Positions 1-71 of a DNA stretch of 64,000 bases are shown in pieces (positions within the stretch are counted from its first letter, which is position 1; each line of letters begins with the position of its first letter). Source of the stretch: Escherichia coli (GTDB lineage Bacteria; Pseudomonadota; Gammaproteobacteria; Enterobacterales; Enterobacteriaceae); NCBI RefSeq assembly GCF_044324875.1, contig NZ_CP172185.1; one strand, 5' to 3'. The position numbers were made by a program.

Positions 1-71
1 GCCCGCTTGCGAACATCTCAGAGAAATTTTGTCTTCACGGTTACTCTACCACAGTAAACCGAAAAGTGTCA

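Follow-up and report, generated by a model that had tools for sequence, protein, structure and literature searches.

The stretch of DNA analysed here, referred to as the window, comprises 64,000 nucleotides (nt) of Escherichia coli (NCBI RefSeq assembly GCF_044324875.1, contig NZ_CP172185.1). Positions 1..27, read on the minus strand, are the first 27 nt of ssrS, the gene for 6S RNA, cut by the edge of the window, and we place the probability of this reading at about 0.98. A preliminary description of the window had proposed that the reverse complement of 1..27 is the 5′ end of 6S RNA and that, on the minus strand, zapA is directly followed by ssrS. Both proposals held, the first through an exact match to the annotated ssrS and the second through the agreement of annotation, Pfam and synteny. 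The ssrS gene at this boundary is already known, so the assignment holds no novelty and no new biology: the RNA, its promoters and processing, and its place between zapA and fau belong to the textbook knowledge of E. coli. Its value is for annotation only: a window-based annotation would miss ssrS and might leave the 41-nt spacer between zapA and ssrS unexplained.

The 6S RNA fragment at the window edge

Window 27..1, taken on the minus strand, has the sequence ATTTCTCTGAGATGTTCGCAAGCGGGC, which is identical at 27 of 27 positions to nt 1-27 of ssrS in K-12 MG1655 (b2911, 3055983..3056165). The comparison with K-12 gave 100% identity over window 1..120, and the K-12 counterpart ended at 3056009. 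In the reference genome CFSAN029787, ssrS was annotated by the Prokaryotic Genome Annotation Pipeline (PGAP) at 2674..2857 of the homologous locus, and the match to the window stopped at 2700, which places exactly 27 nt of the gene inside the window. These 27 nt were the same as window 1..27, and the start of the PGAP-annotated ssrS corresponded to window 27. The remainder of ssrS past the window edge amounts to 156 nt with the 183-nt annotation of K-12 or to 157 nt with the 184-nt form used by Rfam and PGAP. Since it is the 3′ end alone that distinguishes the two forms, both give the count of 27 nt.

The preliminary description had warned that an analysis confined to the window would miss ssrS, and this was the case. 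Positions 1..600 were scanned against Rfam with cmscan at E ≤ 10, and the whole 64 kb at gathering thresholds (46.4 bits for RF00013); neither scan found 6S RNA. The sole weak match near the edge, to the small nucleolar RNA (snoRNA) SNORD58 with E = 4.7, was dismissed as spurious and due to chance. Taken at face value, this outcome would favor a chance or low-complexity resemblance between 1..27 and ssrS, with 1..68 being the 3′ untranslated or terminator region of zapA. However, the fragment spans only 27 of the 187 model positions, with all of its pairing partners absent, which accounts for the Rfam miss. The 27-mer occurred a single time in the window, even when up to three mismatches were allowed, and a shuffle control gave no 27-mer match at up to three mismatches in any of 100 shuffles. 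By chance, about 7e-12 exact matches to a 27-mer are expected per window, calculated for 128 kb. Furthermore, a scan of window 1..600 found no terminator-like site, and the lack of a terminator after zapA is consistent with read-through into ssrS. These results, together with the identity to K-12, the annotated start of ssrS exactly at window 27 and the full-length continuation of the gene in a near-identical contig (see below), led us to reject both a chance match and a zapA terminator as the origin of 1..68, which we regard as exceedingly improbable.

Continuation of ssrS beyond position 1 in a near-identical contig

The exact PepP protein of the window was used to find a public draft assembly (GCA_044162285.1), whose contig DBAHTM010000014.1, here called L003, shared 8,494 of 8,495 bases with window 1..8495, the single mismatch being at window 4109. 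L003 runs 4.8 kb past window position 1. An intact ssrS directly beyond that position would read CAGTCCCCTGAGCCGATATTTCAT..., and the continuation expected of an intact gene past the window edge was CAGTCCCCTGAGCCGATATTTCATACCACAAG... The preliminary description had suggested that the upstream continuation be aligned to RF00013, and with L003 as a proxy the alignment supported its proposal. A full-length match above the gathering threshold was found on the minus strand at L003 4675..4858 (139.8 bits, model positions 1-187, E = 5.7e-30), where L003 4858 corresponds to window 27, and all 183 nt of the gene were identical to K-12. The homologous locus of CFSAN029787 likewise gave a full-length RF00013 match of 139.8 bits. 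Past ssrS, L003 continued with fau, SibC/IbsC, serA and rpiA, and the gene order zapA-ssrS-fau-sibC/ibsC-serA was conserved in the reference genomes CFSAN029787 and K-12 (fau, also called ygfA, encodes 5-formyltetrahydrofolate cyclo-ligase). The enterobacterial arrangement, with ssrS between zapA (ygfE) and fau (ygfA), was thus found at this locus, and fau was directly beyond ssrS in CFSAN029787, K-12 and L003. The ssrS gene has been described as co-transcribed with ygfA/fau (PMC2848244).

The full-length sequence shared by K-12 and L003 showed the rod-like structure of 6S RNA, with a closing stem, a large central bubble and a terminal stem-loop. Its minimum free energy (MFE) was −80.5 kcal/mol, with z = −5.75 compared to shuffles. 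The MFE structure of the complete RNA pairs 21 of the 27 nt in the window, exclusively with nt 159-180, in an outer helix that includes nt 4-27. In the Rfam consensus, whose structure aligned end to end, nt 2-15 and 17-19 belong to the outermost helix. When the 27-mer was folded alone, it reached only −2.6 kcal/mol. The window edge excludes the central bubble, the region that templates the product RNA (pRNA) and the closing stem's 3′ strand, and the isolated 27 nt are not a functional RNA. As a long helix opened by a central bubble, 6S RNA imitates an open promoter and sequesters the σ70-RNA polymerase, mainly in stationary phase. Its release comes on outgrowth, as the polymerase synthesises a short pRNA with 6S RNA as the template (PMC12152304, PMC10406553). 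Both the binding of the σ70-RNA polymerase holoenzyme and the templating of pRNA are established for the K-12 RNA (PMC12152304, PMC10406553).

It could also be that the 27-nt match is real but that ssrS is disrupted just beyond the edge, by insertion of an insertion sequence (IS), by a deletion or by a contig break, so that the window holds only a remnant. The sequence beyond position 1 is invisible from within the window, and a mobile element, IS1, is present elsewhere in the window, where it is located in a secretin gene. In addition, the source strain is absent from the 5,426 complete E. coli genomes, among which the best match to window 1..25000 was 98.4% identical, indicating that the window comes from a sparsely sampled lineage of E. 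coli. In contrast, L003, with its one mismatch in 8,495 bases, carries an intact ssrS that is identical to K-12. A 224-nt K-12 query consisting of the P1 spacer and the full ssrS was contiguous and single-copy, at a coverage of at least 80%, in 5425 of the 5426 complete genomes, and 5424 of these 5425 were at least 99% identical to it. We consider it very unlikely that ssrS is truncated, interrupted or rearranged just outside the window in a poorly sampled lineage; with L003 serving as a proxy for the source record, the chance of a break there is very small rather than strictly zero. Such an alteration, if real, would amount to gene loss at the level of the strain, for an RNA that is not essential.

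Several points weigh against the assignment of window 1..27 to the 5′ end of an ssrS gene. The proxy L003 is near-identical to the window, with one mismatch, and is not proven to be the same record as the source genome, and the 98.4% identity of the best complete genome counts in the same direction. The window contains only about 15% of ssrS and gives no Rfam match to 6S RNA, and hence the family membership of the fragment follows from sequence identity and synteny and not from structure. Finally, the promoter hexamers presented in the next section and the transcription starts at −9 and −224 were assigned from their position and from the literature.

Candidate ssrS promoters and putative precursor leader

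The distal promoter of ssrS, P2, is located within zapA, and exonucleases trim the 3′ end of 6S RNA. Kim & Lee in 2004 reportedly placed the start sites of ssrS at −9 and −224. The gene has tandem promoters, of which the proximal is σ70-dependent and the distal is dependent on σ70 and σS (PMC10406553, PMC12152304), and H-NS, Lrp and Fis bind around and between them (PMC12152304). The precursors are a short one of 194 nt and a long one of about 404 nt, and the mature RNA is 183 nt (PMC10406553). The 5′ end of 6S RNA is processed by RNase E/G (PMC10406553, PMC12152304). This architecture of promoters and precursors comes from Kim & Lee 2004, Lee et al. 2013 and Neusser et al. 2008, by way of the summaries given in PMC12152304 and PMC10406553.

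The TGA stop codon of zapA is at window 71..69, and the 41 nt that separate it from the mature 5′ end of 6S RNA were identical to K-12. What remains of window 1..68 next to the 27-nt fragment is accounted for by the candidate proximal promoter, P1, and by the leader of the precursor. A promoter scan of 600 nt at a threshold of 9 of 12 matching hexamer positions returned two sites, compared to 0.7 expected. In the candidate P1, a −35 hexamer ATGACA at 72..67, which overlaps the zapA stop, is followed by an 18-nt spacer and by a −10 hexamer TAGAGT at 48..43 that is extended by a TG at 51..50. Judging from the position of these elements, transcription would likely start 7 nt downstream of the −10 hexamer, at a G in window position 36. 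Transcripts from this G would begin with the short leader GAAGACAAA, which RNase E/G would presumably remove.

The candidate for P2 was obtained by a pattern search and lies, with 8 of 12 matching positions, below the threshold of 9 of 12 that was used in the scan. Measured upstream from the mature 5′ end, the −10 hexamer of this candidate ends at 232 nt, and the start of transcription, predicted from the sequence to be near window 251, is at about 224 nt. The site at 287..259 is found inside the zapA gene and is to be counted with the transcription unit of ssrS. The features are collected in Table 1.

As a separate observation, window 33, which is position −6 in the leader, was polymorphic, with a G in the window and in K-12 and a C in CFSAN029787. 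Over the 68-nt stretch as a whole, 37 of 5424 genomes were less than 99% identical.

Table 1. Positions of ssrS elements and other features in the window. ORF, open reading frame.
Feature	Window positions	Strand or orientation	Basis or context
ssrS (6S RNA) nt 1-27, 5′ strand of the closing stem	1..27	minus	identity with K-12 b2911 and with ssrS annotated by PGAP
Putative 9-nt 5′ leader of the short (P1) 6S precursor, GAAGACAAA	28..36	minus	position
Candidate proximal ssrS promoter P1	43..72	minus	scan, 9/12, and TG before the −10; hexamers assigned by position
zapA (cell division protein ZapA, 109 amino acids)	69..398	minus	ORF; Pfam PF05164 ZapA, E = 8.7e-21; annotated in CFSAN029787 and K-12
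Candidate distal ssrS promoter P2, TTGCAA-17-TAGAGT, inside the zapA coding sequence	259..287	minus	pattern search, 8/12 match
ygfB (UPF0149)	560..1144	divergent from zapA	ORF and Pfam
pepP	1170..2495	divergent from zapA	ORF and Pfam
AraC-type regulator	58375..59124		ETT2-type segment
IS1 transposase ORF	60042..59539	minus	
HrpJ/InvE-like gene	61582..62751		ETT2-type segment

Gene neighbourhood, remainder of the window and comparison with K-12

A 1,200-nt query taken from the start of the window matched 5,425 of the 5,426 complete E. coli genomes at an identity of at least 95%, over features annotated as pepP, ygfB, zapA and ssrS. One of the 5,426 genomes was without the entire zapA-ssrS region. 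In one genome the region was found on a record labelled as a plasmid, which is probably a mislabelled replicon or a chromid. In the divergent intergenic region between ygfB and zapA, a candidate zapA promoter, TTGTCT-17-TATAGT, was observed at window 464..492 on the minus strand.

The window was collinear with K-12 2,997,692..3,056,009 at 96-98% identity. About 1 kb of K-12 with ygfF, which encodes a putative oxidoreductase, was absent at window 9888..9988, where the gap between gcvP and bglA is about 100 bp. Of the 5426 complete E. coli genomes, 2369 have the same uninterrupted gcvP-bglA junction, which makes the absence of ygfF a common presence/absence polymorphism. In the ygfZ-trhA region, Rfam gave matches to naRNA4 (CssrE, a family of nucleoid-associated RNAs derived from repetitive extragenic palindromic (REP) sequences) at 12637..12714 on both strands, with 81.3 and 59.7 bits. 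The 25-kb search returned a median of 24 match places per genome, which are probably explained by REP-like repeats. The programmed +1 frameshift site of prfB was present in its exact form at 18889..18904, as AGGGGGTATCTTTGAC, in which a Shine-Dalgarno-like element precedes CTT TGA C; the site was expected because of the synteny with K-12 prfB.

Toward the other end of the window, a tRNA-Gly(CCC) at 55868..55941 is the equivalent of K-12 glyU and is the known boundary of the ETT2 island. It is followed by an ORF of 550 amino acids at 56132..57784 with a weak match to Glyco_hydro_15 (E = 2e-6), at a place where K-12 has only fragments of ygeQ and ygeP. After this ORF, a 78-amino-acid ORF at 57793..58029 resembled the GhoT/OrtT toxin family (E = 2.9e-11). 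The last ~6.7 kb of the window, 57311..64000, had no counterpart in K-12, which instead has IS2 and pseudogenes next to glyU, and encoded type III secretion genes of the ETT2 type. In this segment, IS1 at about 59524..60291 splits an InvG-like secretin into an ORF with the N0 domain (59121..59528) and an ORF with the Secretin_N and Secretin domains (60351..61601). One terminal inverted repeat of IS1 was found, at 60269..60291.

The known system with which the edge of the window can be compared is ssrS of E. coli K-12 with its tandem promoters. Transcription from the candidate P1 at window 72..43 would begin 9 nt ahead of the mature end, which is consistent with the short precursor of 194 nt. 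Similarly, the P2 candidate, with a start at about −224, would be roughly consistent with the long precursor of about 404 nt. The published precursors of 404 and 194 nt are a few nt off from the lengths given by −224 and −9. Compared to K-12, the window has the same nt 1-27 of ssrS and the same 41-nt spacer, the zapA-ssrS-fau order of the locus is the same, and the visible part of the gene is no different from that of K-12.
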